A model generated the notes under the pieces. The model saw nothing but the letters and a program-made list of their open reading frames with translations, was not told the DNA's origin and did not search any database. From an uncultured Candidatus Saccharibacteria bacterium (GTDB lineage Bacteria > Patescibacteriota > Minisyncoccia > Phycocordibacterales > UBA9973), in NCBI GenBank assembly GCA_964423445.1, contig CAYREQ010000004.1, positions 2,700 to 66,699 of the forward strand: a stretch of 64,000 nucleotides of DNA, written 5' to 3'. Numbering within the stretch: position 1 is the first letter of the stretch; the number at the start of each line of letters is the position of its first letter. The position numbers were made by a program, and so were the translations under genes. Shown here one piece after another: positions 5,303 through 60,821 of the stretch.

Positions 5303-6112
5303 CTACTCTACTTCCCGAGATGAACCCTCGGGAATTTTTGTTTCTGTTTCTCTATAAGCTTCGATGTCAATTAGATTGATATAATCTTTTCCACTTTCAT
5401 TACTTGTCATAAATTGTCTGGCTTGTAAATCATTTGGAGTTAACCCATTTAATAAAAACAATTGCTTTAATTCTTTTGCAAATTTTTCTATAACTAAATT
5501 ATCCTCATCTACAGAATGTCCTAAAATAGGTCTATACACTAAATATTTCCTGTGGGACTTTTTATCATTGATAGCAATAATGGGTTCTGAAAAATTAATT
5601 CCTTCAAAATTATACTTTTTTGCCAATTCTTGAGCTGCATTTGAGTTAATTAATTCTCTTACTTTTTTTGATAACACAATTTCATTTAAAATACCGAGCA
5701 TTGTGTAACGAGATCTTTTGTCATCATTTATAAAATCGCTTGAATCTATAAAATCTGATCCTTTACCCTCGCGCAAAAAATCTAAAGCTTCTTTTGTATA
5801 TTTTGCCATCCCTGAACCATATTTATATTTTAAATAAAATCTTTTAGTTTTATCTTTCAAGATAATAAATTGAGATTTTGAATTAGACATGAAACGAAAT
5901 GGGTATGATTTTATATCATTAAGAATGCTATCAATATCTTTTGAATTTGAATAATCTAAATTTACTACAATATCAAGATTACCTATGTGCTCAATTTTGT
6001 AAGTTTTTGGACTACTTTCTTTTATAGAAATACCAGACTCTGGAGTTTTCATAAACAAATCATAGCAAAACACCCAATCATAGTCTAATGATTGGGTATT
6101 TTTTGTAAACAT
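5303..6112 (-). CDS. Hypothetical protein
   Basis: Long ORF sitting tightly downstream of the AsnA-like gene on the same strand. No motif recognised. Confidence 0.4.
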   Translation of the reverse strand: MFTKNTQSLDYDWVFCYDLFMKTPESGISIKESSPKTYKIEHIGNLDIVVNLDYSNSKDIDSILNDIKSYPFRFMSNSKSQFIILKDKTKRFYLKYKYGSGMAKYTKEALDFLREGKGSDFIDSSDFINDDKRSRYTMLGILNEIVLSKKVRELINSNAAQELAKKYNFEGINFSEPIIAINDKKSHRKYLVYRPILGHSVDEDNLVIEKFAKELKQLFLLNGLTPNDLQARQFMTSNESGKDYINLIDIEAYRETETKIPEGSSREVE

Positions 6113-6124
6113 TATGTGAAAATC

Positions 6125-6973
6125 TTAGACTGGCTGGCCTTTTAATTTTTTATAAGCCATTATCATCCTAGTCATACCTATACCTCCACCGACTCTCGGA
6201 AAGAATTTTAATGATAAAAATTCATCAAGCTCTTTTTGCACTCTTTCTTTACCAAATAAATCATACAGAAGCTTAGCATATCCTCCACCTGAAATAGTAT
6301 TGAATTCTTCCCTCATTTCTTCTATGTTTGTACTTCTTTCTGCAGAGCCGATGGTCTCATGTCCATACATTATCACATCTATTTTTTCTGCATAATCTTT
6401 ACTCTTTCTTCGCATATTCCAAAATGGAGAAGTGAAAGATGGAAATTCTTTACAGAAAACTATTGGTCCAAAATCTTGCTCCATTTTATTTTCATTTTCA
6501 GTCTTTAGCTCTTCTACTCCATAAAAATTCTTTAATTCATCATAAGTTTTCATATGATATTTATCTCGTGGACCAAAGCCTAGATATTCCAAAAGCTCAA
6601 TCTCAAATTTTTCCAAATCAGAGAGTGTGCCAGGTAGTTCAAATTCAAACATTGGAAAAATTATTTTATGTCGTCCAGGGATTGGATTCTTTTCATTTCT
6701 ATAGCTAGTACTGACACAAAATACTCCAGGGAGTTCAGGGCGAGTCAATAATTCATATTCTAGCCACATCTGTCCTGTCTGTGGCAATGGCCAGACTTGT
6801 CCTGCGTAATTATATGTAGCTACAGTAGTAGGATCTTCACAGGCTGCTAATATAGAGAGTCTGTCTTGTGTATTTACTTCCACAAAACCTTTACTCAAAC
6901 AAAAACTTCTCATTTTATTTACGACCTCACTAAAAGCTACTACATCTCTCTCGCCCACATAATTGTCTATCAT
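6125..6973 (-). CDS. Class II aminoacyl-tRNA-synthetase-fold protein, AsnA (aspartate-ammonia ligase)/AsnRS-core-like
   Basis: Motif-2-like TSYRNEKNPIPGRHKIIFPMFEFE and a C-terminal motif-3 GGGIGMTRMIMAY (compare E. coli AsnA GGGIGQSRLTMLL). At 282 aa it is too short for a full aaRS. Confidence 0.55.
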   Translation of the reverse strand: MIDNYVGERDVVAFSEVVNKMRSFCLSKGFVEVNTQDRLSILAACEDPTTVATYNYAGQVWPLPQTGQMWLEYELLTRPELPGVFCVSTSYRNEKNPIPGRHKIIFPMFEFELPGTLSDLEKFEIELLEYLGFGPRDKYHMKTYDELKNFYGVEELKTENENKMEQDFGPIVFCKEFPSFTSPFWNMRRKSKDYAEKIDVIMYGHETIGSAERSTNIEEMREEFNTISGGGYAKLLYDLFGKERVQKELDEFLSLKFFPRVGGGIGMTRMIMAYKKLKGQPV

Positions 6974-7020: not shown

Positions 7021-7199
7021 GTTTGGAAACAAAATATAAAAAGAGAAATAAATTTAGGGTTTTTCGAACACCCATATTTTTTTCTCTTGTTTGATACATT
7101 GTTTACAATGATATCACTTTAAAAAGTGTCTGCAATGTGGATAACTTATAAAAATTATCTAAAGTTGAGAAAAATTTAAAAAAGGTATATTGTATATGT

Positions 7200-7796: not shown

Positions 7797-7801
7797 AGTA
7801 T

Positions 7802-11951: not shown

Positions 11952-12518
11952 TTAATACTTTCTTATTACTGCTTTTAGGACGGCGACTATGTTGAGTGAA
12001 TGTTCTGGGTATATCGGGCTGTAGTTTTTATTTGCTGGCTCGAGCCATCTCTTGCCTCCTTTGTCTCGGAAATATTTCATAGTGAATTCTCCATCTACTT
12101 CGGCTATCACAATTTGCTTATCTTTGGCACTGTTTGCTCGCTCTACGAGCACCATATCTCCACGCTCTATATGTGCATCTATCATAGAGTCTCCATCTAC
12201 TTCGAGCATATAGGTGAGAGATTTATTTTTTACTAACATGTCATCCAAGTTCACAGTGTCGGCTAACTCTTCTTCTACAGTAGCTGGCAATCCGGCTGTC
12301 ACGAAACCAGCCATCTGAATTTCTCCGAATGATTCTGAGGGTATCAATCTACCCAAGTGATCTTTAGATACAAATCCTTCTTCTATCAATTTACCTACTA
12401 CTTTAAATACTGCGTTCTTGGACTTGAAACCAAAGAGCTTCATCATCTCCGAATACGTAGGCATCCTCTTATTCTGTGAAAAGAAAGATTCGATTTTTGT
12501 TTGATAGATAGTGCGCAT
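11952..12518 (-). CDS. lexA: LexA repressor (S24 peptidase)
   Basis: N-terminal wHTH, an Ala-Gly cleavage site (QMAGFV) and the S24 catalytic region (GDSM...Lys). Confidence 0.85.
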   Translation of the reverse strand: MRTIYQTKIESFFSQNKRMPTYSEMMKLFGFKSKNAVFKVVGKLIEEGFVSKDHLGRLIPSESFGEIQMAGFVTAGLPATVEEELADTVNLDDMLVKNKSLTYMLEVDGDSMIDAHIERGDMVLVERANSAKDKQIVIAEVDGEFTMKYFRDKGGKRWLEPANKNYSPIYPEHSLNIVAVLKAVIRKY

Positions 12519-21185: not shown

Positions 21186-22853
21186 ATGATCGACTCAAAC
21201 ACAATATTAAACGTATGCTACATTGCTCCAGATTTCACCAGCCTGGTATTTTATTCTCATATTGTCCCAATAATTTTATCTCTCGTACTAGGAATATTTG
21301 TATTTATAAAATCAAAATTTAATTTTTTCTCAAAAGTTTTCCTATCTTTCATTTTCGTTTTTGCTATTTGGCTAACTGGGGATTTAATTACATGGACTTC
21401 AACTAACTACAATCTAATCTATACCATATGGTCATTTTTGCTATATCTAGAAATTGTTTTTTACGCTCTTGGTCTTTATTTCGCAATAGTTTTTGTTAAA
21501 AAATCAGATATATCTTTTATATTTAAAGTACTTATATTTCTTTTGACTATTCCTGCTTTCTTACTCACTATAAATCAGCAATCAGTCGTAGGTTTTAATT
21601 ACCCAGTCTGTGAAGCACTGAACGATAATTTTTTAGATACATATAAACTAATCTTTGAAGCAATAATATTGTCTGTAATTCTTATTTATGCTCTAAATCC
21701 TTTCTTTAAAAAGCTATCTTGGAAAGAAGCCTTCCCAAAATTAGTGGTATTAGGTTCGATGTTTTTATTCTTAGCTATTTTTGGAATCACAGAATATCTA
21801 GCTTCAGTAACTGGAAATTATGAAATGAATCTATACAGCTTGTTTCTAATGCCTGTATTCCTGGTGGCTATCATCTACTCTGTATTTGAGCTAGATATAT
21901 TCAATGTAAAAGTACTTGGCTCTCACTATCTAGTCATCGGCCTTATCATATTGATGGGGGGGCAATTATTCTTTATCACAAACACTACAAACAGATTGCT
22001 CACCATCATAGCCATGATAATTGCTGGTATTTTGAGTTTTGTATTATTTAGAAATATTAAAAAAGAATCTGACCAAAGAACACAAATCTTGAAGCTAAAC
22101 ACGGACTTGCAAAACCTAGTGAATCAAAGAGAGTCTCTAGTTCACTTGGTTACTCACAAAGTGAAAGGTTCTTTTACTCACTCAAAATACATCTTTGCTG
22201 GCTTACTCGATGGAAGTTTTGGAGATATTTCTCCTGAATTAAAAAAGATAGCCAAAGATGGATTGGACTCAGACAACACAGGTATAAATACAGTGGACTT
22301 GGTATTAAACGCTGCAAACTTGGCGAGAGGTACAGTGAGATATGGTATGAAAAAAGTAGATTTTAAAGATATAGTATTAGATTCTATAAATGATAAAAAA
22401 ATGGGCATAGAAGCCAAGGGCTTGCAACTAATTACTGAAATAAAAGATGAGAAGACTCCAAACTTTTACAATATTATGGGTGATGCTTTCTGGCTCAAAG
22501 AAGCTGTAAACAATTTACTCGAAAACTCTCTAAAATATACAAAAGTAGGTACTATAAATATAACTCTTGAAAAGATTGGAGAGAAAATAAAACTCACAGT
22601 GAAAGATACAGGAATAGGTATCACTAAAGAAGATAGAAAAAATCTATTCACCGAAGGAGGCCGTGGTAAAGAATCTGTAAAAGTAAACGTAGACAGTACT
22701 GGCTATGGTTTGTACACTGTAAAGCTAATCATAGATGCCCATGGGGGTAAGGTTTGGGTAGAATCCGAAGGCGCAGGCAAAGGCTCTACTTTCTTTGTAG
22801 AATTACCTGCTCTACCTGAAAAAGAAAAAATATTAGAAGCTCCTACTGCTTAA
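21186..22853 (+). CDS. Sensor histidine kinase with a multi-TM N-terminal domain (orphan; no response regulator in the window)
   Basis: About 7-8 TM helices, an atypical H-box region (LVTHKVKGSFTHSKYIFAG) and a C-terminal HATPase_c domain with N, G1 and G2 boxes (NLLENSLKYT, KDTGIGI, GYGLYTVKLIIDAHGGKVWV). Confidence 0.7.
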   Translation: MIDSNTILNVCYIAPDFTSLVFYSHIVPIILSLVLGIFVFIKSKFNFFSKVFLSFIFVFAIWLTGDLITWTSTNYNLIYTIWSFLLYLEIVFYALGLYFAIVFVKKSDISFIFKVLIFLLTIPAFLLTINQQSVVGFNYPVCEALNDNFLDTYKLIFEAIILSVILIYALNPFFKKLSWKEAFPKLVVLGSMFLFLAIFGITEYLASVTGNYEMNLYSLFLMPVFLVAIIYSVFELDIFNVKVLGSHYLVIGLIILMGGQLFFITNTTNRLLTIIAMIIAGILSFVLFRNIKKESDQRTQILKLNTDLQNLVNQRESLVHLVTHKVKGSFTHSKYIFAGLLDGSFGDISPELKKIAKDGLDSDNTGINTVDLVLNAANLARGTVRYGMKKVDFKDIVLDSINDKKMGIEAKGLQLITEIKDEKTPNFYNIMGDAFWLKEAVNNLLENSLKYTKVGTINITLEKIGEKIKLTVKDTGIGITKEDRKNLFTEGGRGKESVKVNVDSTGYGLYTVKLIIDAHGGKVWVESEGAGKGSTFFVELPALPEKEKILEAPTA

Positions 22854-23422
22854 TTTTTTTCTACTATAAAATTAAACACGTGCCAATGTTTTGGTTTACC
22901 TGAAGCAGTATTCCCTTCTTTCTCTTCTTCAATAAATTCTAAAATCTTAAAATCAGACAGTAAACTCATTGCTTGTTTTCTAGTATGAAAAACAATCTCT
23001 TTTCTATCTATTTTCCAACTATCTTTATTACCAAAAAATTGACCGACGAAAATACCTTTTGATTTTAAGGATTTTGTAATATTTTTTATAAAAGAATTAA
23101 ACTCTTTTTTGCCATAAAAAGGAAGTGCGTACTGAGCATTTACTAAATCAAAAGTATTTTTGGGAAAATCATATTCCAGAAATGGAATATTTTTATAACT
23201 AAATTTTTTGTTTTTAAAATTCCTTGCAAATAATTTTGTCTCTGGAGCACTATCAATAGCTAAAACATTTTTAAATCCTTTCTTTATTAAATATTTTGAT
23301 TCAATTAGTGTACCTGCTCCCAAGTCTAAAGCATTTTCTTTATTTTTAGAAAAAGAAACAGCTTGAACTAAAAGCTCTCTGGTTTTTCTTTTTTTATGTT
23401 TTTTAAAGTATGATTTCCACAT
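22850..23422 (-). CDS. Class I SAM-dependent methyltransferase
   Basis: Motif I ALDLGAGTLIES and a post-I acidic residue (VLAIDSAPE). Confidence 0.65.
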   Translation of the reverse strand: MWKSYFKKHKKRKTRELLVQAVSFSKNKENALDLGAGTLIESKYLIKKGFKNVLAIDSAPETKLFARNFKNKKFSYKNIPFLEYDFPKNTFDLVNAQYALPFYGKKEFNSFIKNITKSLKSKGIFVGQFFGNKDSWKIDRKEIVFHTRKQAMSLLSDFKILEFIEEEKEGNTASGKPKHWHVFNFIVEKN

Positions 23423-23474
23423 AATATCTAATTATACAGAAATGGGGTAAATAAAAATAAAATACTTTTACTTC

Positions 23475-24359
23475 TTATTGTTTAACTTCACTAGCACCTA
23501 GTCTCAAGATTATTTCTCGGACAGCGTTTTCACTATTTGTGATAACGATAGAATTGTCATCGGCAAATACATATGCCATTACTATATTTTTATCTGTATC
23601 GTACAAAATACGAGCATTTTTATTTTCTATAATACCGTTTTCAAAGTTTTTAGTTAAAAGATATTTTGTCTCTGGCAACAAATCTACTCCGAAAAATCCA
23701 TGTAAGTCCAAAAACATTTTAGATTCCCAGGAACGCATAATCTCAAATACGTCTATAATAGAACGCATCTTCATCAACATGAAAAAGCTATTTGTAGAAT
23801 TATCATTTTTTATGATACCCATCAAAAAATTGTCATCCACAAAGTTTGCTTCACTAGGGTTAAAGCTCCCATCTATTGCCGACATAAATTTTCTCAAGCC
23901 GACAGGGCTCTTGTTTAAAGTAGGATAAATACCCTCAATCTGTCTAATTTTTATAGTACTAGTGTTCACACCATCAAAGACTTTTTTCTCTATTACAGTT
24001 TTTTTCAAATCAGCTATCTCGAGTAAGGCATTTTTATCTGTAAAAATAATCGGCACAAATTGTTTTGCCACAGGCACCGTCGGCACTGCCCTCTTTTGGA
24101 AAAAGAAAAACAGAGTTCCGATGGAAGCTAAAATCAAAATCAGACCGAAAAACATAAAGAATTTATTCTTTCTAGACTGTGGAGATTCATTTCTTTTTTC
24201 TATTTCATGCTGTTCTTCGCTATGGATTATTTTTTTTATTATTCCACCCCTACCATCTTCTAGTACATGAGTCATGTCTTCAGTAAAAGTTTTGATAACC
24301 TTACTCTTTCCTATAGGCAAGTCTCCTGTTTTATTAGTGGTTTTATTTTCTGGTTCCAT
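23475..24359 (-). CDS. Membrane-anchored hypothetical protein
   Basis: Single TM helix (FFMFFGLILILASIGTLFFFF) followed by a roughly 200-aa extracytoplasmic domain. Confidence 0.4.
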   Translation of the reverse strand: MEPENKTTNKTGDLPIGKSKVIKTFTEDMTHVLEDGRGGIIKKIIHSEEQHEIEKRNESPQSRKNKFFMFFGLILILASIGTLFFFFQKRAVPTVPVAKQFVPIIFTDKNALLEIADLKKTVIEKKVFDGVNTSTIKIRQIEGIYPTLNKSPVGLRKFMSAIDGSFNPSEANFVDDNFLMGIIKNDNSTNSFFMLMKMRSIIDVFEIMRSWESKMFLDLHGFFGVDLLPETKYLLTKNFENGIIENKNARILYDTDKNIVMAYVFADDNSIVITNSENAVREIILRLGASEVKQ

Positions 24360-24457
24360 AATATATTTATTCTAACATTTTTATAAATTTATTTGTATTA
24401 ATAAAAATGAAAACCGCCTTGTGGGACGACGGTCCTCATCAAAGCGGTGATGCAATA

Positions 24458-25321
24458 TTAGTTTATAGCAACCTCTCTTTTTTTAATCAAAGTTGCAACC
24501 CCGAATCCGGCGTATGTCATAGGTATTAGATAAATCGTTGCAGGTTGTGGAAAATCTGAATAGAAAAGCACAGCCAGAGTTATTATCATACCTAAAAGGT
24601 AGCCAGAGATTGACCCAGCGGCGCCCAATTTCCCGTAGGTGCGATAAGCAAGCATGATTATCAGCCCCGGAAATACTAAATCTCCTACTCCCGTAGCTAA
24701 GACACCCTGTGCTTCGGGGGAAATTCCTTCAGGTATTACAATCATAGCCCCTGAATTATTTCCGGATATTTGAGCAAGCTTTTGCATCTGCATCGAATAG
24801 AAAACGGCAAAAAAATCAAATGCCATGATTCCCACAGACAGAGCTGCACATTGCCGATAGTTAATGTTTCTAATACTGACAAGAAAGATTAAAGCGGCGG
24901 CAAATGCACAAAAGTTGTTGGTAATCCAATTGGGATAGCTCAACCAAACATAAGTAGCTACGCTCGCAAAAAGGATTCCTCCCAATAAAAATAATTTCCG
25001 GTCTTTTTCTCTCTTTGCAAACAGAGATGGAAAAACCATAAAAATCAAGAACGTTACTATTTTATTAAGATTAGTGAAAAGACCAGAAGAAAGGTCAAAT
25101 AGATTAATCATTAAAAAAATTAGGAGCGTCATGCCGACAGCCACGAGAACTATTGTCCCCAAGACTTGCTTCTTGTTTTTAGGTTTCACCTGAAGAATGG
25201 GATGGTCGATGTACTCATATTCATGGGCACGCCTGTATTCAAAGCTCAAATAGCAAGCGAACGCATAGAACAAAACAGTAGCAACAAACCACAACGATGT
25301 TATGGTGACTAGTTTATACAC
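24458..25321 (-). CDS. Presenilin/signal-peptide-peptidase (A22)-family intramembrane aspartyl protease homologue
   Basis: Polytopic protein carrying all three family signatures in the right order: FD in a TM helix (MAFDFFAVFYS, cf. SPP YDVFWVF), GVGDLVFPG (cf. GLGDIVIPG) and QPATIYLIP (cf. the QPALLYLVP PAL motif). Confidence 0.7.
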   Translation of the reverse strand: MYKLVTITSLWFVATVLFYAFACYLSFEYRRAHEYEYIDHPILQVKPKNKKQVLGTIVLVAVGMTLLIFLMINLFDLSSGLFTNLNKIVTFLIFMVFPSLFAKREKDRKLFLLGGILFASVATYVWLSYPNWITNNFCAFAAALIFLVSIRNINYRQCAALSVGIMAFDFFAVFYSMQMQKLAQISGNNSGAMIVIPEGISPEAQGVLATGVGDLVFPGLIIMLAYRTYGKLGAAGSISGYLLGMIITLAVLFYSDFPQPATIYLIPMTYAGFGVATLIKKREVAIN

Positions 25322-25418
25322 GGTTTTTTCTCCTTAAAGTACTGAATTTTCTGTAGTTACATTACAAGAAAATACCACTTCCGTCAATAAAACCGTTTAT
25401 ATTATAGATAAATTATAT

Positions 25419-36843: not shown

Positions 36844-37506
36844 TTAGTCAGCGAAGTGGCCTTTTTTATCTGCGCCGAAGAAAATCTTGTGAGCTGTTTT
36901 TAATATACTTTCAAATAGACTAGTGCTGTAGGATGAGAAGTTAAAAATCACTATGAGTGTAAATATAGTCAGAGAAAGTTTTATACTAAAAAAAGAAAGC
37001 GGTATCGCGATGATGCCAAAAAATACAGGCACCAGTGTGCGGATAGTACTACCACGAATTTCTCTTTTTGTTATTTCTGGATTTTTAATATGCTCAGAGT
37101 AAAGTACGTATCGTCGCATCCAATATAAAGTGAGTCCTATCAAGACTATGTGTGTTCCGAATATTATTACAGAGAGTTCATTTTTACTATACTCTCCCAA
37201 GATGCTAGTAGAAAATGGAACCAAACTAATCAACATAAAAAATAAAGCATTTATATTTACGAGCATAGAATCTACTGTCTTTGCATAAATTGAAACAAAG
37301 AAATGGTGTGCTCGCCAATAAGTAAAGAGTAGAGAGAAACTCAAAATATAACTTAGGAAAAGAGGGAGTAGCTGTTTTATCTGAAGCCAAAGACCCATGT
37401 TGTCTACCGGTCCCCAAATAATTGGTAATTTAATTTCAAAAACTAAAATCGTCATAACGATAGCAAATATGCCATCGGACAATTGATCTAATCTTGAGTG
37501 GTTCAT
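36844..37506 (-). CDS. TMEM175/DUF1211-family membrane protein (putative K+ channel)
   Basis: N-terminal signature RLDQLSDGIFAIVMTILVFEI followed by about 6 TM helices. Confidence 0.65.
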   Translation of the reverse strand: MNHSRLDQLSDGIFAIVMTILVFEIKLPIIWGPVDNMGLWLQIKQLLPLFLSYILSFSLLFTYWRAHHFFVSIYAKTVDSMLVNINALFFMLISLVPFSTSILGEYSKNELSVIIFGTHIVLIGLTLYWMRRYVLYSEHIKNPEITKREIRGSTIRTLVPVFFGIIAIPLSFFSIKLSLTIFTLIVIFNFSSYSTSLFESILKTAHKIFFGADKKGHFAD

Positions 37507-39752: not shown

Positions 39753-40703
39753 TTAATTTGTTTTATTATGAAATTTTTCATGTATGTCTCGCAAGTGTTT
39801 GTCTGTGACGTGTGTGTATATTTGTGTCGTACCTATATTTGCATGTCCGAGTATCGCTTGGACCGAGCGCAAGTCTGCACCATTGCCAAGTAAGTCAGTA
39901 GCAAACATATGACGCATGACGTGTGGAGTAACTTTTTTTGAAATACCAGCTTTGATAGCATGCATCTTTACGATGCGTTCTATAGACCTCTGAGTGAGAG
40001 CACCATTGGTTTTATTTTTTTTAATTTTATTTTCTACTTGCACAAAAAGTGCATCACTCATATCCTTGCGAGCGTTTAAATAATTTTTTACATATTTTTT
40101 TGCATCAGCTGACATGAAAACTACGCGCACCTTTCCTCCTTTTCCACGGATTGAAAGCTCTGAAGATGATAAGTCTATATCCGAAGTTAGTGAGCACAAT
40201 TCTGATACACGAAGACCTGTAGAAAATAAAAGTTCTAGTATCGCTTTATCACGTAAATCTTTTATATCTCCACCTTTTGGAGAGTTTAATAATCTATTTA
40301 ATTCTACGGGGGTGATGAGATCAAGTGAGCGCTCACTCACTTTTGCTAATTCTATACGTTCAGCAGGCAAGGTCTTTATTTCTTGTCTGGCTAAGTATTT
40401 CAAAAAAGCGCGAAGAGCTATCAAATAATAATTTTGAGTCTTTTTGGTGAGAGTTTCACCTTTTGCTTTAGCATTACCGGCACTTTGCCTGTTTAGCCAC
40501 ATACGAAATTCACGAATAGAGGCATCAGTGATGTCTTCTGGGTTGTCATTTTTTGAAAATTCTAAAAAACGAGTTAGATAATGGTCATAATTTCGTACAG
40601 TATGTAGAGAACGGCCCTTTTCTATCTCTACGTACTCCAAAAATTGAGTTTTTAGCTGTTTTAGCGATGCCATATATATAGTATAGCAAATATTTTGCGA
40701 CAT
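39753..40703 (-). CDS. xerC: Tyrosine recombinase, XerC/XerD-like
   Basis: N-terminal SAM-like core-binding domain and a catalytic domain with R, HxxR (HVMRHMFAT) and a tyrosine (GHANIGTTQIYTHV). Confidence 0.8.
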   Translation of the reverse strand: MSQNICYTIYMASLKQLKTQFLEYVEIEKGRSLHTVRNYDHYLTRFLEFSKNDNPEDITDASIREFRMWLNRQSAGNAKAKGETLTKKTQNYYLIALRAFLKYLARQEIKTLPAERIELAKVSERSLDLITPVELNRLLNSPKGGDIKDLRDKAILELLFSTGLRVSELCSLTSDIDLSSSELSIRGKGGKVRVVFMSADAKKYVKNYLNARKDMSDALFVQVENKIKKNKTNGALTQRSIERIVKMHAIKAGISKKVTPHVMRHMFATDLLGNGADLRSVQAILGHANIGTTQIYTHVTDKHLRDIHEKFHNKTN

Positions 40704-41624: not shown

Positions 41625-44600
41625 ATGCCAAAAGAAAAATTTATAATTTTAAAACCAATACAAGATAAACCCAAAGTTTCTAAAAAAAAGGAAGGTGGGA
41701 TAAATGATTATAAGGAAAAAGTACCTACATATAAAGAAAGAGTCATAGTAACTCGCTCAAATGGAGAAATAGAAGATGATTGGGAGCTTATGAGTGTAGG
41801 AGATGGTAAGGCTGTCGTAGAAAAAGAGGATATAAGCTCTGGAGAAAGGATACGAAAAGTTATACCAGAAAATGAACTTCGTTTTGTTAAAGATAAAAAT
41901 AAAAACCCAGAAGTATTGAAATATATAGAAGACGCAAAAAATACTGTAGCTTGCTCAAGTTGCGGAAGAATACAAGAAGCTACTGCTGTATTTTGTGGCT
42001 CTTGTGGAAAGCCTATGAATAAAACAGAAGAACCTGTAAAAAAAGAAACGGTATCTGTTTTTTGTCCTTTTTGTGGCAAAGAGCAAAATAATGAAGCTGT
42101 TTTTTGTGGTTTTTGTGGTGAAAAAATACCTGGTTTAGAAAATACAAATGAAGAAGTAGACTCACCAGACGCAGGAGAATTGATGGATAAAGCTTTAAAA
42201 AATATAAATAGAGTAACTTCTAAAGAAAAAGAGGTAAAGCTGACAGACGTGGAATTTAATCAAATGCTCGAAGAAGATGCAGAAAAATGGAGAGACGATA
42301 TAAAAACATTTAAATTAGATTTAGAAAAATTGCTTCCACCAGAATTTAACAACTTAACCCCTATACAAAAACAAAAAGTTTTACAAGATTCAAAAAAGAG
42401 AATCGTGGACATCGTAAAGGCTGATGCTCAAACTCAATACTCTGAAGAATTGAAGAAGCGAATGCAAGAAAACATAGGTGCAAAGTGGAAATATCAGGGC
42501 AAAATAATGACTGGTATAAGAAATATAAAAACTTCTATAAAATCTTCTTTCACAAAAGAGCGCGACATAAAAAATACAGAAAATGAAACTTACTTAAAAA
42601 TCATAAATAGCGAGGAAGGCAAAAAACTAATCACTGAAGACTTACAAAGATTGGTTGAAATAGTGGGTAAACAAAAAGTACATTTAAACTATAAGGGAGA
42701 AATGTATGTAAATTATTTAAATGTATATAGTGAAATACCAGACAATGAACGTACAGAGGAGCAAGAAAAAATTTATAGTGATTTTAATATCAGAGCTGGA
42801 AAATTTTCAAATATGCCTTATGAGTGGGGGCAGGAAAAAGAAAAAAAATATTGGGGAAACAGGAAAAAATATGAGGAAGCAAAAGCCGAATACGAACATG
42901 CGAGAAATGAAGTTCTAAAAATAAAATCTGAATTAAAAGGCAACGAAATTGCATTGATTGAAATGCTAAAAGCAGACAACTCTATAAAACTAGAGCAACT
43001 TTTAAATACACACCCAGAATTTGAAAAAGCTCTAGATGATTTTACAAAAACTGCTGGATGGAGAGAAAAACTTAAATCTATTGGTAGTGCCGCAAACACA
43101 TTGTCTGGAAAAAATATGATAAATAGGGGATTAGTATTAGGTGGTGCGGGAATAAGAGCGGGAGCAAAAATTTTGCCGTGGATTGCTGGTGCTAGTGCAG
43201 GCGTGGCTACTTTGAGTACAGCCATAGCCACACCTATAGCTGGAGGAGTAATCGGTTTTTATAGAGGTAAATTTAAAGCAAAAGAAACACTACAAGAAAG
43301 ACAAAAAGGAGCGAGATATGGACAAAAAGATGAGAGTGCTGAAAAAGTAGCCACAGCCGACGCTACTAGACTAGCGGCTCGTTTACAAGATTTAGTAAAT
43401 GAAATAGCTTTATTAGACGGAGAACAAAAAGCAAAAAAACTAGCAAACCTAGCTGTGAGAATAGAACACTCTATTGGTAAAATAGAGAAGGGGCAAGTAA
43501 ATTTTGGAAACGCAAAATCATCTTTGGTAAATCAATTTAATTTAGTAAATGCTTTAAACCAAGCTGTGGCTTTAAAAGAATTGAATTCTAGTGATACACA
43601 TATAGAAGTAAAAAATAGAATTGAAAGTCTGTTAAAAAATGTCGGTGAAAATATAGCAGAAAATACATCAAAAGCACAAAAATCTTTCGTGAGAAAACAA
43701 GCTTGGAAGGGTGCACTTATCGGTGGCGGGCTTGCTGGAGTTGGTTATGGAGTTAGATATCTTACAGAAAATTTAATTTTTTCAACAGAGACACCTTCAG
43801 TAAAAGAGGATGTTCTGTCAAAAAACACAAACACAGGAGTAAAGACTCCAATAAAAACACCTAGTGGTTCACCTACAGAAACACCTGCAGTTAAGTCTTC
43901 ACCTACAAGTACTCCGACCCCAGAAAACACAGAAACTCCTAAACCTTCACCAACAAAAACTCCAGGTGTAGTAGATGATAGTACTGTAAAAGATGCAGAC
44001 AAAGCTCCAGCTAAAGTTGAAAACTTTGTTAATAAAGGAATAACTATAGAGCGAGGTGGTTCAATCAAAGCAATTTCAAACTTACAAAAACAACTAAAGG
44101 CTGAGTACCCAGACATATCAAAAGCTCCAAAAAATATTCAAGATTTCGTAAACGCAGACCCTACAAAAAAAGCTATCGAACTCGGTTTTTATGACCCTAC
44201 AAAGAAAGCAGAGAGCGCTCTCGTTCAAAAAGGTTCTGTCTTAAAATTTGATTCAACTGGAAAACTTTTATTTGGTAAGCCAGATGTTGATGGAAATATA
44301 GCTGAACTCGGTGATAAATACACTGGCAAAATGCTAGATTCTGATAGACCAAAAATAATAGAGGAGCGCCCTAGGGTTAGGAGAATTAGACAAAATGTAA
44401 TACCAAAAAACATAGAAAATGTAAAAATGCCGAAAAGTACAGACACTATAGATCTTCCTCAATCAAAGCCTTCAGATAACATTACCCTTCGACCAGAAAA
44501 TAAAATACCAGAAAAACCAAAAGACATAGATGTAAACACAATAGTAAAGGAACAAGCCCCAGCAGTAGCAGCAGATGCTCCGGTAACAGATGCAAAACCT

Positions 44601-45035
44601 ACACCTGCTCCAAAAATTTCACCTACACCTGAAGAACAAAAGATAAAAATAGAAACACAAATGGATTTAATAGAAGAATATCCAGAACTTAAAGGTAGTC
44701 CCTTTATAAAAAATCCTCCATCTGGTATGTCGGGGGCAAAAATAGTTGAAATTACTAAACTATACAATGAAAATGTTGCAAAACTATCAGGAAATGACCC
44801 TGAAAACTGGTCTTATGTAAAAGATGTCCCGACTAAAAACTTTTTAGGACAAAAAGTTGTTCAAGGAGATAAAATGGTTCCATATCTTAATAAACTCAAA
44901 GAAATAAGTGGTCTAAATCCTGAATATAATGTTATAGATGGCGATGAATCCATAGAAAAATATATGGTAAGAGTGCATGAATGGGCAGTAAAAAATAATA
45001 AATTGGGTGAAGTAAAGAATATAAAGATAGAATAA
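41625..45035 (+). CDS. Large (1136 aa) multi-domain protein with zinc ribbons, a coiled coil, Gly-zipper membrane segments, a Pro/Thr-rich linker and a C-terminal globular domain
   Basis: Three CxxC-x-CxxC ribbons (CSSCGRIQEATAVFCGSCGKPM and FCPFCGKEQNNEAVFCGFCGEKIP), Gly-rich hydrophobic segments (GLVLGGAGIRAGAKILPWIAGASAGVATL) and a TP-rich linker (TPIKTPSGSPTETPAVKSSPTSTPTPENTETPKPSPTKTP). Confidence 0.5.
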   Translation: MPKEKFIILKPIQDKPKVSKKKEGGINDYKEKVPTYKERVIVTRSNGEIEDDWELMSVGDGKAVVEKEDISSGERIRKVIPENELRFVKDKNKNPEVLKYIEDAKNTVACSSCGRIQEATAVFCGSCGKPMNKTEEPVKKETVSVFCPFCGKEQNNEAVFCGFCGEKIPGLENTNEEVDSPDAGELMDKALKNINRVTSKEKEVKLTDVEFNQMLEEDAEKWRDDIKTFKLDLEKLLPPEFNNLTPIQKQKVLQDSKKRIVDIVKADAQTQYSEELKKRMQENIGAKWKYQGKIMTGIRNIKTSIKSSFTKERDIKNTENETYLKIINSEEGKKLITEDLQRLVEIVGKQKVHLNYKGEMYVNYLNVYSEIPDNERTEEQEKIYSDFNIRAGKFSNMPYEWGQEKEKKYWGNRKKYEEAKAEYEHARNEVLKIKSELKGNEIALIEMLKADNSIKLEQLLNTHPEFEKALDDFTKTAGWREKLKSIGSAANTLSGKNMINRGLVLGGAGIRAGAKILPWIAGASAGVATLSTAIATPIAGGVIGFYRGKFKAKETLQERQKGARYGQKDESAEKVATADATRLAARLQDLVNEIALLDGEQKAKKLANLAVRIEHSIGKIEKGQVNFGNAKSSLVNQFNLVNALNQAVALKELNSSDTHIEVKNRIESLLKNVGENIAENTSKAQKSFVRKQAWKGALIGGGLAGVGYGVRYLTENLIFSTETPSVKEDVLSKNTNTGVKTPIKTPSGSPTETPAVKSSPTSTPTPENTETPKPSPTKTPGVVDDSTVKDADKAPAKVENFVNKGITIERGGSIKAISNLQKQLKAEYPDISKAPKNIQDFVNADPTKKAIELGFYDPTKKAESALVQKGSVLKFDSTGKLLFGKPDVDGNIAELGDKYTGKMLDSDRPKIIEERPRVRRIRQNVIPKNIENVKMPKSTDTIDLPQSKPSDNITLRPENKIPEKPKDIDVNTIVKEQAPAVAADAPVTDAKPTPAPKISPTPEEQKIKIETQMDLIEEYPELKGSPFIKNPPSGMSGAKIVEITKLYNENVAKLSGNDPENWSYVKDVPTKNFLGQKVVQGDKMVPYLNKLKEISGLNPEYNVIDGDESIEKYMVRVHEWAVKNNKLGEVKNIKIE

Positions 45036-48405: not shown

Positions 48406-49275
48406 TTGGGGGTGGTTTTTATCTTTGTACTTTTTCTAACAAAAAATGAAACTGTATTTAAAAATCAAATAGAAAACAATGGACTTGTTTTTAATAGCAA
48501 TGACAAAGTAGGGGATTTGGTAAATAGAGATACAGATTTAGATGGAGTTCCAGATTGGCAAGAAAGTCTCTATGGTACTGACCCTACCAAAAGAGATACA
48601 GATGATGACGGAGTGAGTGACGATATAGAAATTGCTAGATTAAGTAAACAAAATCCAGTAAATGGAGAACTTGATCTAAGTATAGAAAACAAAGAAGATA
48701 AGACTATGACGGGACAATTGTCAAAAGAATTATTTTCTACCATTGCTACACTAAACCAGACAGGGGCAGTAGACCAAGACACAGTAGATACATTAAGCGC
48801 AAAACTGGCTGAAAAAATACAAAACCCTTTAAATATAAGGACATACACAATGTCTGATATAAAAATTTCTACTAGCGATGATAAACAATCAGTAAAAGCT
48901 TACAATGATGCTTTGAATAAAATTTATGCAAAATACCCTGTAAAAACTACGTTTTTTGATGTACTAGATAAATTTATAATTGATGAAGATACAGTAGATG
49001 AGAGTGCACTCAAGGATCTTGATTTCTTAATCAAACAAACTACTAATATAAAAAATGAAACCATAAAAATTCCTGTACCAGCAAGCTTGGCTATATTGCA
49101 TTTAAATGTATTAAACGCTATGGAAAAAGTAATCGATAATATGAGCTCCGTAAAATTTTATGATACTGACATTGTGGTAGCTATGGGTGGCATAGTCCAA
49201 TACAGTGAAAATGCAAGTGCACTGGAATCAGCTGTAGGTGAATTGGATTTAAAAATAAATCAAAGATTAAAGTAA
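48406..49275 (+). CDS. Membrane-anchored protein with thrombospondin-type-3-like Ca-binding Asp repeats (first gene of the T4SS-like cluster)
   Basis: N-terminal TM helix followed by DTDLDGVPDWQESLYGTDPTKRDTDDDGVSDDIE (DxDxDG repeats). Confidence 0.5.
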   Translation: MGVVFIFVLFLTKNETVFKNQIENNGLVFNSNDKVGDLVNRDTDLDGVPDWQESLYGTDPTKRDTDDDGVSDDIEIARLSKQNPVNGELDLSIENKEDKTMTGQLSKELFSTIATLNQTGAVDQDTVDTLSAKLAEKIQNPLNIRTYTMSDIKISTSDDKQSVKAYNDALNKIYAKYPVKTTFFDVLDKFIIDEDTVDESALKDLDFLIKQTTNIKNETIKIPVPASLAILHLNVLNAMEKVIDNMSSVKFYDTDIVVAMGGIVQYSENASALESAVGELDLKINQRLK

Positions 49276-49320
49276 AAAAACACTTCACCATAGAATAAAT
49301 AAAGGTTATAATATATAAAA

Positions 49321-50802
49321 ATGATTTCTAGTAATACAACAAGTAAAAAAATAATATCTACTCTTCTGGTAATTTTTATTTTATTACCAAATGTATTATT
49401 TATACTTCCACAAAAAGCAATTGCTCAAGAAGAAGCTGTTACAGTGCCTGTCAGCGACATCGGTAAACCTGCAGTAGTCACTGCAAAATCGAGCTTTTGG
49501 AGTAGAATTTTAAATGGCACCACAGCAGCAAAGACCAGTGTTTCAGCTGGAACAGATCTAAAGCAATGGGCATTGAAAATAGCCGAGGAAGCTCTGCGTA
49601 ACCTGGCGAAAAAGTTTTTACAAAAACTGACTGAAAGTACTGTAAATTGGATAAACGAGGGTTTCCATGGAGCCCCACTTTTTGTGGAAAATCCTAAATC
49701 TTTTTTCAAAGATATCGCAAAATATGAAATTAAAACTTTGGTAAGTAGAATCGGCTATGATAATAGAAATTTCCCATTTGGAAAAGGTTTTATTATGAGT
49801 GCGATCCAAGGATATAAAAATACTTTTGAGAGAAATGCTCAATACTCTCTGAGTAAAGTCATAAGTGACCAACAATTTTTAAATAATTATAGAAATGATT
49901 TTAATGTCGGTGGCTGGGATGGTTTTCTACTAAACACTCAGTTCCCGCAAAATAACCCGATAGGTTCACAGCTTATGTATTCTGATTACTTGGCGAGCAA
50001 GCTTCCAGAAGTTGATACAGCAAAAAATAAAATACAAAAAACCTTAGAACAAGGACAGGGTTTTCTCTCTCCTCAGACATGTCCATCAAATCCTAAATAC
50101 AATAATGCTGTAAATGAATTCAAAAGACCTACTTTTAAACCTACGACCCCCCCACCTGTATATCAAGATTGTTCTCAATATGAAGAAGAAGGGAACACTG
50201 CAGACCTTGCAATATGTGAAAGGGCTAACGCAGCACTAGAAGAAGCATATAATTTAGATGTCGGCAGTGAAAGATTATTGTGGAATGAAAAAAACTTTTG
50301 TCCAGGTGGACTAGTGGCTACTACTCCTGGCTCAGTGGTGGCAAATCAAATAATGACTGCTACTTCATCTGCTTTTAGGCAAGGGGAGCTCGGTATGGCC
50401 ATGGGAAATAGCTTGTCTGCAATCTTTGATGCATTACTCAATCAATTTATGTCTAAAGGTTTGACTGCAATAAAAAGTAAAATTTATGATAAACCAAAAG
50501 AGGGTGATAGAGACGACTTTAGTTATTATGGAAACACTTTTGGTGATGTACAGACGACAAATAGTGGTACTAAATTTATTTGGAGTCAGATAAAAGATCC
50601 AGTAAATGATATAGACAAGCTAGAATATGACGGAACAAAGTTTATAGATAAAGAAGGATTAAAAGAACCTGCTGATCCTTTATCCTGCCCGGCAGGACAG
50701 ACAGGCACACCTCCGAATTGTATAAAAGTATTACCGACTAGCTGTGACTTAGGCGATGGTACTCTTCGTCCAATCCCAGAATGCAACCCAACAATAAATT
50801 AA
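49321..50802 (+). CDS. Secreted/cell-surface protein
   Basis: Signal anchor IISTLLVIFILLPNVLFILP, then a 460-aa domain with conserved Cys pairs and no TM helices. Confidence 0.5.
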   Translation: MISSNTTSKKIISTLLVIFILLPNVLFILPQKAIAQEEAVTVPVSDIGKPAVVTAKSSFWSRILNGTTAAKTSVSAGTDLKQWALKIAEEALRNLAKKFLQKLTESTVNWINEGFHGAPLFVENPKSFFKDIAKYEIKTLVSRIGYDNRNFPFGKGFIMSAIQGYKNTFERNAQYSLSKVISDQQFLNNYRNDFNVGGWDGFLLNTQFPQNNPIGSQLMYSDYLASKLPEVDTAKNKIQKTLEQGQGFLSPQTCPSNPKYNNAVNEFKRPTFKPTTPPPVYQDCSQYEEEGNTADLAICERANAALEEAYNLDVGSERLLWNEKNFCPGGLVATTPGSVVANQIMTATSSAFRQGELGMAMGNSLSAIFDALLNQFMSKGLTAIKSKIYDKPKEGDRDDFSYYGNTFGDVQTTNSGTKFIWSQIKDPVNDIDKLEYDGTKFIDKEGLKEPADPLSCPAGQTGTPPNCIKVLPTSCDLGDGTLRPIPECNPTIN

Positions 50803-50803
50803 A

Positions 50804-53674
50804 ATGAAGAAATTTTTTACATACATATTAATATTTGTCACAGTATTACAGCTAGTTATTCCACCTAGTCCTGCGCAAGCAGAAAGCCCTACGGATAAAG
50901 GTGATTGTGCTATTCCTGGAGCCACAATGACAAACGTCACTAGGGAATTTTGTAAAAATAGTGGAGGTACATTTAAAGCCTTTGGATCTACTACTACACC
51001 AGTCTCTACAGAAAGCCCTACTGATAAAGGTGATTGTGCTATTCCTGGAGCCACAATGACAAACGTCACTAGGGAATTTTGTAAAAATAGTGGAGGTACA
51101 TTTAAAGCCTTTGGATCTACTACTACAGGTGGACCGGGCGGGACCCTTGGAGATACAGGCTCAGCTGCGGCTCCTGGAGACGCTCCAAAAGATCCAAATG
51201 CTGATATTTTTGGAAGCTGTAGTGGATGGAATCTTGTTGTAGCTTGGAACGTCACTGGTTGTGTGGTAAGAGCATTTCATCTTGTATTTATGGTATTACC
51301 ATCTATGGTTTTATACCTTACAGCATATATATTCAATGCTATGCTCGCCCTAACTCTCGGTACTGTTTTATATAAAAATGGTTTTTTACCAGAAGCTTGG
51401 AGAATAGTGCGAGACTTTTCAAACATCTTCTTTATACTGGTTTTATTATATATATCTATAAAAATGATTTTAGGCTTGGGTGGAGCTGAAGTAAAAAAGA
51501 TGATAGCCCAAGTCATAGTGGCTGCTCTACTCATAAATTTTTCTATGTTTATGACTCAGGTAGTCATAGACGCTTCAAACATGCTTGCTTTAATTTTTTA
51601 TAATAAAATCCAAGTCACTTCTCAAACATACACCCCTTTTATAAGTACAAAAAATGGTGTACAAGATAAAGATATCGCTGGAGCCATCGCTTCTGGTTTT
51701 AACCCAGCTAAATTTATCAACCCTGCTGATGTGGCAGAAATTAATAATAAAGCAGTAACTAGTGGAGGTTTATTTTATGACCTAAAAAATATAGCTAAGG
51801 ACCCAAGTACAACAATAAACCCACTCAGACCTCTCGACAACACTACAACTAATTTAAAAATAGGTTGGGCTGTAGCAAAAAGTGCTCTAACTGGTGGTGG
51901 AGATGAAAAAACTTTTCCACCATCTATCGCACTGGCAATAATTTTTACAGCCTGTGCGGTCTATCTCTTTGCATCATATGCATTTTTTATTGCTGGATTA
52001 GCATTTATTGGTAGATTGATAGAGCTCTGGATGCTGATTATATTTTCACCTTTTGCTTTTATGTCTTTATCTGTACCAAAATTGAAAGGCATAGAATATC
52101 TGGGATGGGATGCATGGCTAAAACGGCTACTTGCAGTGGCTTTTATGGCTCCTGTTTTCATGTTCTTCCTACTATTAATATCAAAACTTGTACAAATAAA
52201 TATATTCAAAGGAATGGAAAATATTCCAGGGCAAACTCCAATTACAATTCCTCATGTACTTGTAATGCTTATAATTCCAGCAATTATATATATCAGTCTT
52301 CTTTGGAAAGCTGTGGACTATGCAAAAAAGGGAGCAGGAGAATTCGGCTCTGCCATAATTAAATACGGACAAATGGCAGCTGTGGCAGTGGGTGGACTAG
52401 CTGTGGGTGCAGCTACGGGTGGAGTAGGATTGGCTGCTAGTTCCACCCTTGGAAGCCTTGCTGCAAAGACAGCAAGCAGCAGCTCTCTACTTAAGGCATC
52501 AACTCAAAAAGGAATAGGTGGATGGGCAGCAAGAATGACTCTAAAGGGTGCAGAGTATGGAGCAAATGCATCCTTTGATGCTAGAAAACTTCCTGGTGTT
52601 GGTGGAATGATGAAAAAAATGGGTATGAAGACAGAATCTTCTACTATTACAAAAGCTTTGGGTCTAAGTAGTGCTGGTGGATATGAAGGCAGAAAGAAGA
52701 GAATGGAGGAAGAAAGAGAGAAGAGAGAAAAACAATTAAAAGTAAGAGGTAGTGACCCACTAATGCATGAACTACACAAAGAACAAGAAAATCTACAAAG
52801 TGCAGAAAATAAAGTGGCTGAATGTTTTAGACAAATAGATGACGAGATTGAAACATGGGAATCAAAGAAACGTCAAGCTGTAAATGGTAGTGCTGATGAT
52901 GTAAAAGCTGCAGAAAAATTAAAAGAATTAAATGAACTAAAAGGGTCTATAAAAGCTGGTGTTATGCCTATGGTGCTTAAATACACCGAGGGGGCATTTA
53001 AGGGTGAATTTAAAGACGCAAATGGCAACTATAACACAATGAAGGAAAAAGATCAGACTGGTAAAATGATTGATATTTATGCTACAAGCAATGGCAAGAT
53101 AGCTGAAAAGGCTGTTGAAGAATATGAAAACAAAGTAAAAGATGGTGAAAAGACTGAGACAGAAGCAGAAAATGCATTAACGGAGGCTCAGCTAGCTATA
53201 AAGGCAATAAAAGAATCTGAAGTGAAAGCTAAAGAAGCAGCAGATGCAAGAAAAAAAGCAGAAGAAGAACAATTGGCAAGACCTACAAGTACTGATGCAA
53301 ACAATGCCCTAAAAACTGCAATTGAAAATGAGACAAAAGCTCTTAAAGAATTAGAAGATAACAAGGAAAAAGCACCAAAATTAGATATAAAAGAACTAAT
53401 AAAAAACCATGAATCAGCAAAAACTAAACTTTCTGAACTTCGTTCTAAGCTAGAAATAACAAAAGAAATAACAAAAGGTGGAACTGGAGCATCTATAAAA
53501 GAAATGAAAAATATAATAATACCTGGAATTAAAACAAAAATAAGAGATATTGAAAACAGCTGGAAATGGGCGGAAGCTGATAGGATTGAGGGTAAAATGC
53601 TATTTAAAAATATTAACCATGAATTAGCACACAAAATGAGAATGGCCGCAGATGTAACAGAAGTAAAACATTAA
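50804..53674 (+). CDS. VirB6/TrbL-like polytopic membrane protein with N-terminal tandem Cys-loop repeats and a C-terminal coiled-coil extension
   Basis: Signal peptide, two 43-aa repeats (ESPTDKGDCAIPGATMTNVTREFCKNSGGTFKAFGSTTT), then about 8 TM helices in a roughly 400-aa core, then a roughly 400-aa K/E-rich coiled coil. This is the architecture of TrbL/VirB6-family proteins. Confidence 0.5.
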   Translation: MKKFFTYILIFVTVLQLVIPPSPAQAESPTDKGDCAIPGATMTNVTREFCKNSGGTFKAFGSTTTPVSTESPTDKGDCAIPGATMTNVTREFCKNSGGTFKAFGSTTTGGPGGTLGDTGSAAAPGDAPKDPNADIFGSCSGWNLVVAWNVTGCVVRAFHLVFMVLPSMVLYLTAYIFNAMLALTLGTVLYKNGFLPEAWRIVRDFSNIFFILVLLYISIKMILGLGGAEVKKMIAQVIVAALLINFSMFMTQVVIDASNMLALIFYNKIQVTSQTYTPFISTKNGVQDKDIAGAIASGFNPAKFINPADVAEINNKAVTSGGLFYDLKNIAKDPSTTINPLRPLDNTTTNLKIGWAVAKSALTGGGDEKTFPPSIALAIIFTACAVYLFASYAFFIAGLAFIGRLIELWMLIIFSPFAFMSLSVPKLKGIEYLGWDAWLKRLLAVAFMAPVFMFFLLLISKLVQINIFKGMENIPGQTPITIPHVLVMLIIPAIIYISLLWKAVDYAKKGAGEFGSAIIKYGQMAAVAVGGLAVGAATGGVGLAASSTLGSLAAKTASSSSLLKASTQKGIGGWAARMTLKGAEYGANASFDARKLPGVGGMMKKMGMKTESSTITKALGLSSAGGYEGRKKRMEEEREKREKQLKVRGSDPLMHELHKEQENLQSAENKVAECFRQIDDEIETWESKKRQAVNGSADDVKAAEKLKELNELKGSIKAGVMPMVLKYTEGAFKGEFKDANGNYNTMKEKDQTGKMIDIYATSNGKIAEKAVEEYENKVKDGEKTETEAENALTEAQLAIKAIKESEVKAKEAADARKKAEEEQLARPTSTDANNALKTAIENETKALKELEDNKEKAPKLDIKELIKNHESAKTKLSELRSKLEITKEITKGGTGASIKEMKNIIIPGIKTKIRDIENSWKWAEADRIEGKMLFKNINHELAHKMRMAADVTEVKH
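50882..51127 (+). repeat. Intragenic tandem duplication; 129-bp unit, two copies, one mismatch
   Basis: Direct comparison: 50882-51010 and 51011-51127 differ at a single base (acggat versus actgat) and encode two 43-aa Cys-loop modules. Confidence 0.85.
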
Positions 53675-53684
53675 AATTTATTTT

Positions 53685-54182: not shown

Positions 54183-54194
54183 TAAAAAAATAAT

Positions 54195-54971: not shown

Positions 54972-54979
54972 AATTAATT

Positions 54980-55408: not shown

Positions 55409-55475
55409 ACTTTAGATTTTAGTATTATACTAGAACCTAAAGTCTAGCGCCTAAGGCCTAGAAAAAAATAAATAC

Positions 55476-56114: not shown

Positions 56115-56118
56115 ATAT

Positions 56119-57981: not shown

Positions 57982-58008
57982 AAATTGTTTTGGGTCTATT
58001 GATTAAAC

Positions 58009-60263: not shown

Positions 60264-60272
60264 ATTTTTAAT

Positions 60273-60788: not shown

Positions 60789-60821
60789 GTATTTATACTA
60801 AACATGTTAAAATAAACATAA

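Follow-up and report, generated by a model that had tools for sequence, protein, structure and literature searches.

A predicted SPP-type A22 intramembrane aspartyl protease on a probable accessory insertion in a patescibacterial genome

Described GxGD proteases and family assignment

Presenilin- and signal peptide peptidase (SPP)-type GxGD intramembrane aspartyl proteases are described from eukaryotes and archaea only in the work on archaeal and intramembrane proteases consulted here (PMC4343526, PMC2947513), and our literature search found no publication on bacterial members. Here, we analyze a 64-kb stretch of bacterial DNA, the whole of which is from now on referred to as the window, that encodes a predicted protease of this type (peptidase family A22). 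The closest described system, by both sequence and fold, is the eukaryotic SPP family (SPP/HM13, the SPP-like proteins SPPL2a/b/c and SPPL3; MEROPS A22B, Pfam PF04258; human SPPL2a structures 9k92/9k93). SPP family proteases have a membrane topology that is the reverse of presenilin and cleave type II substrates, and in human SPPL2a a pre-formed β-hairpin in loop 6 is essential for activity (SPPL2a cryo-EM paper, PMC12745688). The window protein has in common with them nine transmembrane (TM) helices, a Phi-D motif in TM6, GxGD(I/L/V)xxPG in TM7 and QPAxxYLxP before TM9, as well as a short loop 6 with a β-hairpin at the active site and an N-out/C-in orientation, both of which are predicted here. 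Unlike SPPL2a, it is found in a bacterial host, is 287 residues long and has neither an N-terminal PA/luminal domain nor a long C-terminal tail. It further differs from eukaryotic SPPs in a clade-invariant Thr replacing the Leu of the PAL motif and, in the window member, in Phe replacing Tyr before the first catalytic Asp. Identity to SPPL2a is about 22%, and a rough neighbor-joining (NJ) tree places eukaryotic SPPs in a clade of their own. Based on sequence and structure prediction, the gene probably encodes an active minimal SPP-branch protease, with signal-peptide remnants or shed type II anchors as its likely substrates, and represents an accessory single-gene insertion of about 1 kb that was probably acquired horizontally.

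Archaeal presenilin/SPP homologs (PSH; MCMJR1 of Methanoculleus marisnigri, PF06550, PDB 4hyc/4hyg/4y6k) resemble the window protein in being prokaryotic nine-TM GxGD proteins of about 300 residues that need no partner subunits, and match its predicted fold with Foldseek TM-scores of 0.52-0.70. However, the window protein does not match PF06550 at E ≤ 10, and its clade carries the SPP-type QPAT-YL-P signature, whereas PSH was reported to lack an obvious PAL motif and to have PPL instead (PMC2947513). Presenilins (A22A, PF01080), the catalytic subunits of γ-secretase, share the fold and the catalytic dyad (Foldseek TM-scores of 0.64-0.69 to presenilin-1, PS1), but their topology is opposite to the one predicted here, and the window protein has no long loop 6 requiring endoproteolysis and shows no sign of partner subunits. 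Presenilins act on type I substrates; for the window protein, type II substrates would be expected. On general grounds, the bacterial peptidases SppA (S49) and RseP/RasP (M50) may be functional analogs in that they might remove N-in/C-out signal-peptide remnants or type II stubs. SppA is a Ser-Lys protease and RseP/RasP are zinc metalloproteases, with folds and catalytic types unrelated to A22. No SppA or RseP/RasP gene was found among the scanned open reading frames (ORFs) of at least 150 amino acids in the window.

The assignment to the SPP branch is based on profile searches in both directions. Pfam PF04258 (Peptidase_A22B) matched the window protein with an E-value of 4.4e-14 and 53.2 bits (gathering threshold 23.3), aligning residues 29-278 with profile positions 38-271 of 286. 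A preliminary description of the locus had proposed an A22 protease homolog and a search against A22B and presenilin profiles; PF04258 was matched as expected, while presenilin PF01080 matched neither the protein nor its clade. At E ≤ 10, no transporter family and no A24 family (PF01478) were found in the Pfam scan, and no NCBIfam model matched. A single-sequence search against the PDB returned human SPPL2a as the sole match (1.3e-5), with FD aligned to YD, GVGD to GFGD and QPAT to QPAL.

Word-indexed homolog searches, giving 3 and then 7 matches, proved insensitive for the A22 family, and what was needed was an exhaustive search in which a profile was compared with 1.84 billion cluster representatives. 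It identified 1834 relatives at E ≤ 1e-3, of which 397 were found at ≤ 1e-10 and 41 at ≤ 1e-30, the best being nearly all 280-315 residues long. The query and 39 of these relatives with 23-39% identity to it were aligned for conservation analysis. All 40 sequences match PF04258, and 22 of them also match the archaeal PF06550 (≤ 0.01). Compared with the PDB, the resulting 40-sequence family profile matched SPPL2a at 2.6e-32 over all nine TM segments, archaeal PSH at 2.8e-17 with an alignment ending ahead of the C-terminal motif, and presenilin-2 at 8.5e-7 in two pieces. Because of this combination of PF04258/PF06550 matches and profile comparisons, the clade is assigned to the SPP (A22B) type and to neither the PSH nor the presenilin type. 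By sequence, the window protein is accordingly classed as an SPP/A22B-type member of the GxGD family.

A homolog from Berkelbacteria is listed as 'hypothetical protein' (NCBI) and 'Uncharacterized protein' (UniRef), while JGI names members 'presenilin-like A22 family membrane protease'. Since Pfam and the JGI naming already recognize the family, the advance made here is one of context and annotation and not the description of a new kind of system.

Catalytic motifs, predicted fold and membrane orientation

The three motif strings given in the preliminary description, IMAFDFFAVFYS, GVGDLVFPG and QPATIYLIP (residues 259-267), are all present within or near TM helices and in the order stated there; the third, however, reads PAT and not PAL as had been claimed. 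The occurrence of these motifs in order is far beyond chance. Asp214, the predicted second catalytic residue, is encoded by 24682..24680 (minus strand) and is part of GVGDLVFPG. Residues D169, G211, G213, D214, P218, G219, Q259, P260, A261, T262, Y264, L265 and P267 are invariant in the 40-sequence alignment, the Thr of the third motif included. The position preceding the first Asp is occupied by Tyr in 31 sequences, Phe in 8, including F168 of the query, and Trp in 1. Across 170 proteins (listed homologs and cluster members), QPAT was found in 75 and QPAL in 38, so that the QPAT clade comprises at least 75 sequences among the proteins retrieved. The named long QPAL sequences are eukaryotic SPPs (from Trichinella, Perkinsela, Cyanophora and others).

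For structural analysis, an AlphaFold2 (AF2) model based on the 40-sequence alignment was used, and a 4-sequence run with a predicted local distance difference test (pLDDT) score of 52 was set aside. The model (pLDDT 92.7, predicted TM-score 0.91) contains nine TM helices, with TM7 and TM8 fused by DSSP into one helix of residues 213-255. D169 is located within TM6 (155-175) and D214 at the start of TM7 (from residue 213), while PAT directly precedes TM9 (262-286). Loop 6 is about 35 residues long in the model and contains an antiparallel β-hairpin (Table 1). When the model was compared with the PDB using Foldseek, ranks 1-17 were all A22 proteins (SPPL2a, PS1 and PSH), with query- and target-normalized TM-scores of 0.52-0.70. 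The first match outside A22 had a TM-score below 0.2, transporters included, and no A24 structure (FlaK) was found among the fold matches. The A22 homology suggested in the preliminary description is therefore well founded, resting on a PF04258 match above gathering, folds confined to A22 and catalytic Asp residues kept in 40/40 sequences. It had named a transporter profile together with unconserved Asp residues as the contrary outcome; no transporter match was obtained, and both residues are invariant.

The membrane orientation was derived from the distribution of charged loop residues. The side comprising loops 1, 3, 5, 7 and the C-terminal tail carries 18 Lys and Arg residues, compared with 2 on the opposite side. 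Because of this distribution, the positive-inside rule predicts an N-out/C-in protein with loop 6 outside. More Lys and Arg residues are found inside than outside in all 40 homologs, and the same bias on the same loops was obtained for a control set of 11 sequences from the eukaryote-type SPP clade. The predicted orientation is that of SPP and SPPL proteases and opposite to that of presenilin. As far as sequence and modeling can tell, Patescibacteria hold an SPP-type enzyme with every testable catalytic and structural hallmark, save for the Thr that replaces Leu in PAL.

Distribution and genomic setting

The window has a GC content of 34% and encodes NusA, trigger factor, ClpP, RNase Y, LexA, MetK, polynucleotide phosphorylase (PNPase), YidC/Jag, a LysM-M23 peptidase and a cluster with VirB4 and a type IV secretion system (T4SS) pilin. 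Since NusA, trigger factor, RNase Y, LexA, YidC and others are encoded, the host is a bacterium. The proteins with 82-97% identity to its PNPase are labeled, wherever a source names them, Patescibacteria group, Paceibacterota, Nomurabacteria, Parcubacteria or Minisyncoccia, with one labeled just 'bacterium', which identifies the host, by sequence, as a Paceibacteria-type Patescibacterium.

A scan for QPAT[IL]YL[IVM]P in one genome per GTDB species yielded 10 confirmed loci in all (L001-L010). Eight carry patescibacterial labels (Minisyncoccia, Zambryskibacteria, Vogelbacteria, Paceibacterota, three Saccharibacteria and one 'Patescibacteria group'), the best by identity being the Minisyncoccia locus at 47%. 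The two remaining loci are labeled as uncultured Gammaproteobacteria metagenome-assembled genomes (MAGs), although these labels are unconfirmed. Both, L007 (CAZAPV010000007.1, 63% GC) and L009 (CAZVIU010000066.1), encode typical QPAT-clade A22 genes, and either the MAGs are mislabeled or misbinned or the family extends beyond Patescibacteria. Most relatives of the A22 gene come from Patescibacteria MAGs, where they are seldom found. The closest homologs are 47-49% identical, and a search of 5.8 billion proteins found no A22 homolog above 49% identity.

The NJ tree is star-like and poorly resolved and was used solely for two groupings: eukaryotic SPPs lie apart from the prokaryotic radiation of ~300-residue proteins, and the window protein groups with L001 (Minisyncoccia) and with the subclade of L002 (Zambryskibacteria). 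One 529-residue protein from an 'archaeon' MAG (P0106, MDP2434269.1, on a 2.8-kb contig) is a long SPP-like sequence of eukaryote type with QPALLYLVP and GLGDIVLP that clusters with eukaryotic SPPs in this tree. It may be an SPP of archaea, which would bear on how eukaryotic SPP arose, or it may stem from a eukaryotic contig in an archaeal bin.

The immediate surroundings of the gene are summarized in Table 1. The A22 ORF is uninterrupted, with 287 codons and a GTG start, and the N-terminus of its product is in register with full-length homologs. The gene lies 97 nt downstream of the PNPase gene pnp on the same strand, so that read-through transcription is possible. A TTGACG-N17-TAATGT sequence upstream of the gene was noted by eye as a promoter candidate; it failed the scan criteria, and no claim is made for it.

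Table 1 Features of the A22 locus (positions refer to the window)
Feature	Position	Strand	Basis
SPP-type A22 (GxGD) intramembrane aspartyl protease coding sequence, predicted; 287 aa, nine predicted TM helices	24458..25321	-	ORF, Pfam PF04258, AF2 model, Foldseek
Shine-Dalgarno AAGGAG, 8 nt 5' of GTG start	25330..25335	-	Read from sequence
Catalytic Asp169 codon, FD motif of IMAFDFFAVFYS, TM6; equivalent to YD of SPP/presenilin	24815..24817	-	Invariant 40/40; aligns to SPPL2a YD
Loop-6 antiparallel β-hairpin, residues 193-197 and 206-211, leading into GVGD	24689..24745	-	DSSP on AF2 model
GVGD motif G211-D214, followed by SPP-type xxPG; Asp214 opens TM7	24680..24691	-	Aligns to SPPL2a GFGDIIVPG
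QPAT, residues 259-262, clade version of QPAL(LY), before TM9	24536..24547	-	Aligns to SPPL2a QPALLYLVP
Terminator-like hairpin and T-run, 28 nt 3' of A22 stop codon	24403..24430	-	Consensus scan, pattern match only
~1010-bp segment missing from colinear L013; A22 gene and flanks only	24400..25409	.	blastn, junctions read

Comparison with close relatives indicates that the gene is an accessory one. In five relatives (L013-L017), whose PNPases are 97, 92, 91, 91 and 89% identical to that of the window, pnp is directly followed by an ortholog of 23475..24359 (291-296 residues), with no A22 gene between them in any of the five. Beyond this gene lies an ortholog of the histidine-kinase gene of the window, with extra genes intervening in L017. 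The window and L013 are colinear at ~86% identity save for a 1050-bp extra ORF in L013 and two window-only segments, one of which holds the A22 gene together with its Shine-Dalgarno sequence and the terminator-like hairpin. In blastn alignments, window positions 29995-25410 correspond to 2527-7123 of L013 and positions 24399-23473 to 7108-8034, at 86-87% identity. No clear target-site duplication was found at the junctions relative to L013, the AT-rich DNA between the genes having diverged too far. The G+C content at third codon positions (GC3) of the A22 gene is 0.396 compared with a mean of 0.268 (standard deviation 0.051) for 30 window genes, a deviation of only ~2.5 standard deviations that LexA equals. 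The relatives are represented by MAG contigs, and absence of the gene accordingly holds at this position.

As the gene is absent from five relatives and lies on a ~1 kb insertion with atypical GC3, it is dispensable and was probably acquired horizontally. A recent gain in the window lineage is the most parsimonious reading, loss in all five relatives being less parsimonious, and the likely donor is another Patescibacterium of higher GC. The preliminary description had raised a horizontal origin involving archaeal PSH: horizontal acquisition is indeed probable, but the nearest relatives are patescibacterial and no archaeal donor is indicated. A direct archaeal origin was likewise rejected, since the nearest relatives are all sequences of the candidate phyla radiation (CPR) type and nothing speaks in its support. 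The specific role in a reduced genome that had also been suggested is not supported by these observations. With no copy at this position in the five close relatives examined, the gene belongs to no core adaptation of reduced genomes, nor is it a conserved part of the secretion machinery of this lineage. Its mobile accessory status tempers functional speculation.

The gene directly downstream of the A22 gene, 23475..24359 (minus strand), encodes a 294-residue protein that matches no Pfam or NCBIfam model and is predicted to be a type II protein with a cytoplasmic N-terminal part of ~66 residues, one TM segment and an external domain of ~210 residues. It is kept directly 3' of pnp in all five relatives, so that its position next to the A22 gene is secondary. 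The second window-only segment (22857..23472, compared with L013-L016) carries an ORF for a 190-residue S-adenosylmethionine (SAM) methyltransferase (22850..23422, minus strand) of very low GC (0.257; GC3 0.157). The segment lies between the copies of an imperfect direct repeat of ~13-16 nt, AAGTTAAACAATAAG / AAATTAAGCAGTAGG, in which the region where the stop codons of the convergent neighbors overlap is duplicated. Because the more distant L017 has a 190-residue methyltransferase at this place, an insertion in the window and a deletion between the repeats in L013-L016 are equally likely.

Proposed function and other genes of the window

With the N-out/C-in orientation predicted for it, the window protein would be suited to act on substrates that lie N-in/C-out in the membrane, cleaved signal peptides among them. 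A single-span helix of this orientation with a short external stub would enter the protease laterally, and its C-terminal part would pair as a β-strand with the loop-6 hairpin. Asp169 and Asp214 would then activate water, and the substrate would be cut inside the bilayer. The likeliest substrates would be what remains of signal peptides after signal peptidase has acted, or type II anchors after shedding. Clearance of signal peptides, or processing of the many secreted proteins, had been put forward in the preliminary description as a specific role in a reduced genome. The orientation does suit signal-peptide-like substrates, but a specific need of this genome is unsupported, given five relatives without the gene at this position. 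Bulk signal-peptide clearance is thus plausible, being favored by the orientation and weakened by the dispensability of the gene in close relatives.

Several points weigh against an active SPP-branch protease acting on signal-peptide remnants or type II anchors and encoded by a recent insertion, besides the modest GC3 deviation and the MAG origin of the relatives mentioned above. We infer both the proteolytic activity and the substrates from sequence, and the orientation derives from the positive-inside rule. The PAL motif has its Leu swapped for Thr, albeit for a Thr that is invariant in the clade. Dispensability in close relatives sits uneasily with a housekeeping role in signal-peptide clearance. 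A sigma-70-like promoter was not detected upstream of the gene by scanning. Finally, the ten loci L001-L010 show no conserved gene neighborhood and no neighbor that would indicate a substrate. A histidine-kinase-like ORF does lie directly 5' of a divergent A22 gene (GTGD, without PG) in Saccharibacteria locus L010 (4390..5511 and 5527..6585) and is 32% identical over 136 residues to the window kinase at 21186..22853. In the window, 1.6 kb separate the kinase and A22 genes, which are on opposite strands, and this recurrence is probably a coincidence.

A possible, if on balance unlikely, alternative is an SPPL2-like regulated protease that would cut the stubs of specific type II (N-in) proteins after shedding, for example anti-sigma-type regulators or surface proteins, and free their cytoplasmic fragments, without any bulk clearance. 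The top match in sequence and structure is SPPL2a, a type II-stub protease, though this may only reflect that SPPL2a is the sole SPP-family structure in the PDB. The patchy accessory distribution fits a specialized job better than housekeeping. The type II single-pass protein encoded immediately downstream would fit such a protease, but its gene is also present in relatives without the protease and is separated from the A22 gene by the terminator-like hairpin, and no conserved partner or substrate gene adjoins the A22 gene across the 11 loci compared.

It is very unlikely that the protein serves membrane-protein quality control, with orphan, misinserted or tail-anchored helices being cleaved in the manner of eukaryotic SPP in endoplasmic reticulum-associated degradation (ERAD). 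ERAD is among the listed roles of SPP/SPPL proteases (PMC12745688), and the predicted orientation would be compatible with this function. However, neither the locus nor the family distribution provides specific support, the Clp components encoded in the window are unlinked to the gene, and relatives dispense with it. Equally, there is only a slim chance that the gene is a silent or neutral passenger, recently acquired and without a physiological role in this host. A lineage-specific ~1 kb insertion of atypical GC3 and the failure of the scan to find an upstream sigma-70-type promoter would fit a passenger. This is countered by the full-length ORF with all family-invariant residues intact, by the strong Shine-Dalgarno sequence at ideal spacing and by the short same-strand distance to pnp with its potential for read-through. 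The suggestion that the protein is no A22 member at all, and instead a transporter or type IV prepilin peptidase (A24) with chance-similar motifs, was rejected and has next to no chance of being correct: GxGD is also found in A24 peptidases and short motifs can arise by chance in hydrophobic proteins, but no A24 or transporter profile matched, the SPPL2a alignment is full length and all significant folds are A22.

The predicted protein can thus be described, by sequence, as a genuine SPP-type A22 protease whose substrates are proposed here. We further offer a speculative and rather doubtful extension, namely that the ~300-residue QPAT proteins of Patescibacteria might represent an SPP-type (not PSH-type) bacterial lineage that would be the closest prokaryotic relative of eukaryotic SPP, would share its reverse topology and loop-6 hairpin, and would move horizontally as an accessory secretion or surface-remodeling function among ultra-small episymbionts. 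If true, QPAT proteins would be a minimal, partner-free bacterial model for the mechanism of SPP/SPPL proteases and for type II substrate selection, and the lineage would bear on the origin of eukaryotic SPP. A stand-alone SPP of 287 residues would be an attractive minimal system for structural and mechanistic work, as archaeal PSH was for presenilin.

Further genes of the window were noted in passing. The Peptidase_S24-like ORF at 11952..12518 was considered as signal peptidase I and identified as LexA instead. A same-strand run of mostly Pfam-less ORFs at 48406..62189 (plus strand), including proteins of 493 and 956 residues, ends with a VirB4/TraG-P-loop ATPase (56119..57981) and a T4SS_pilin-domain protein (59019..60263) and is in this reminiscent of patescibacterial clusters for type IV secretion or conjugation-like transfer. 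A Xer-type integrase is encoded at 39753..40703. The 282-residue product of 6125..6973 (minus strand) matches only the class II aminoacyl-tRNA synthetase catalytic core (tRNA-synt_2, D/K/N type). A full synthetase would be longer, and the protein could be an EpmA/AsnA-like paralog. The sole Pfam signal of a 1136-residue protein (41625..45035, plus strand) is a weak zinc-ribbon/DZR match near residues 110-167, with the remainder of the protein unassigned. A 220-residue protein (36844..37506, minus strand) matches TMEM175, an endosomal/lysosomal K+ channel family, and is another member of a 'eukaryote-named' membrane family in the window.

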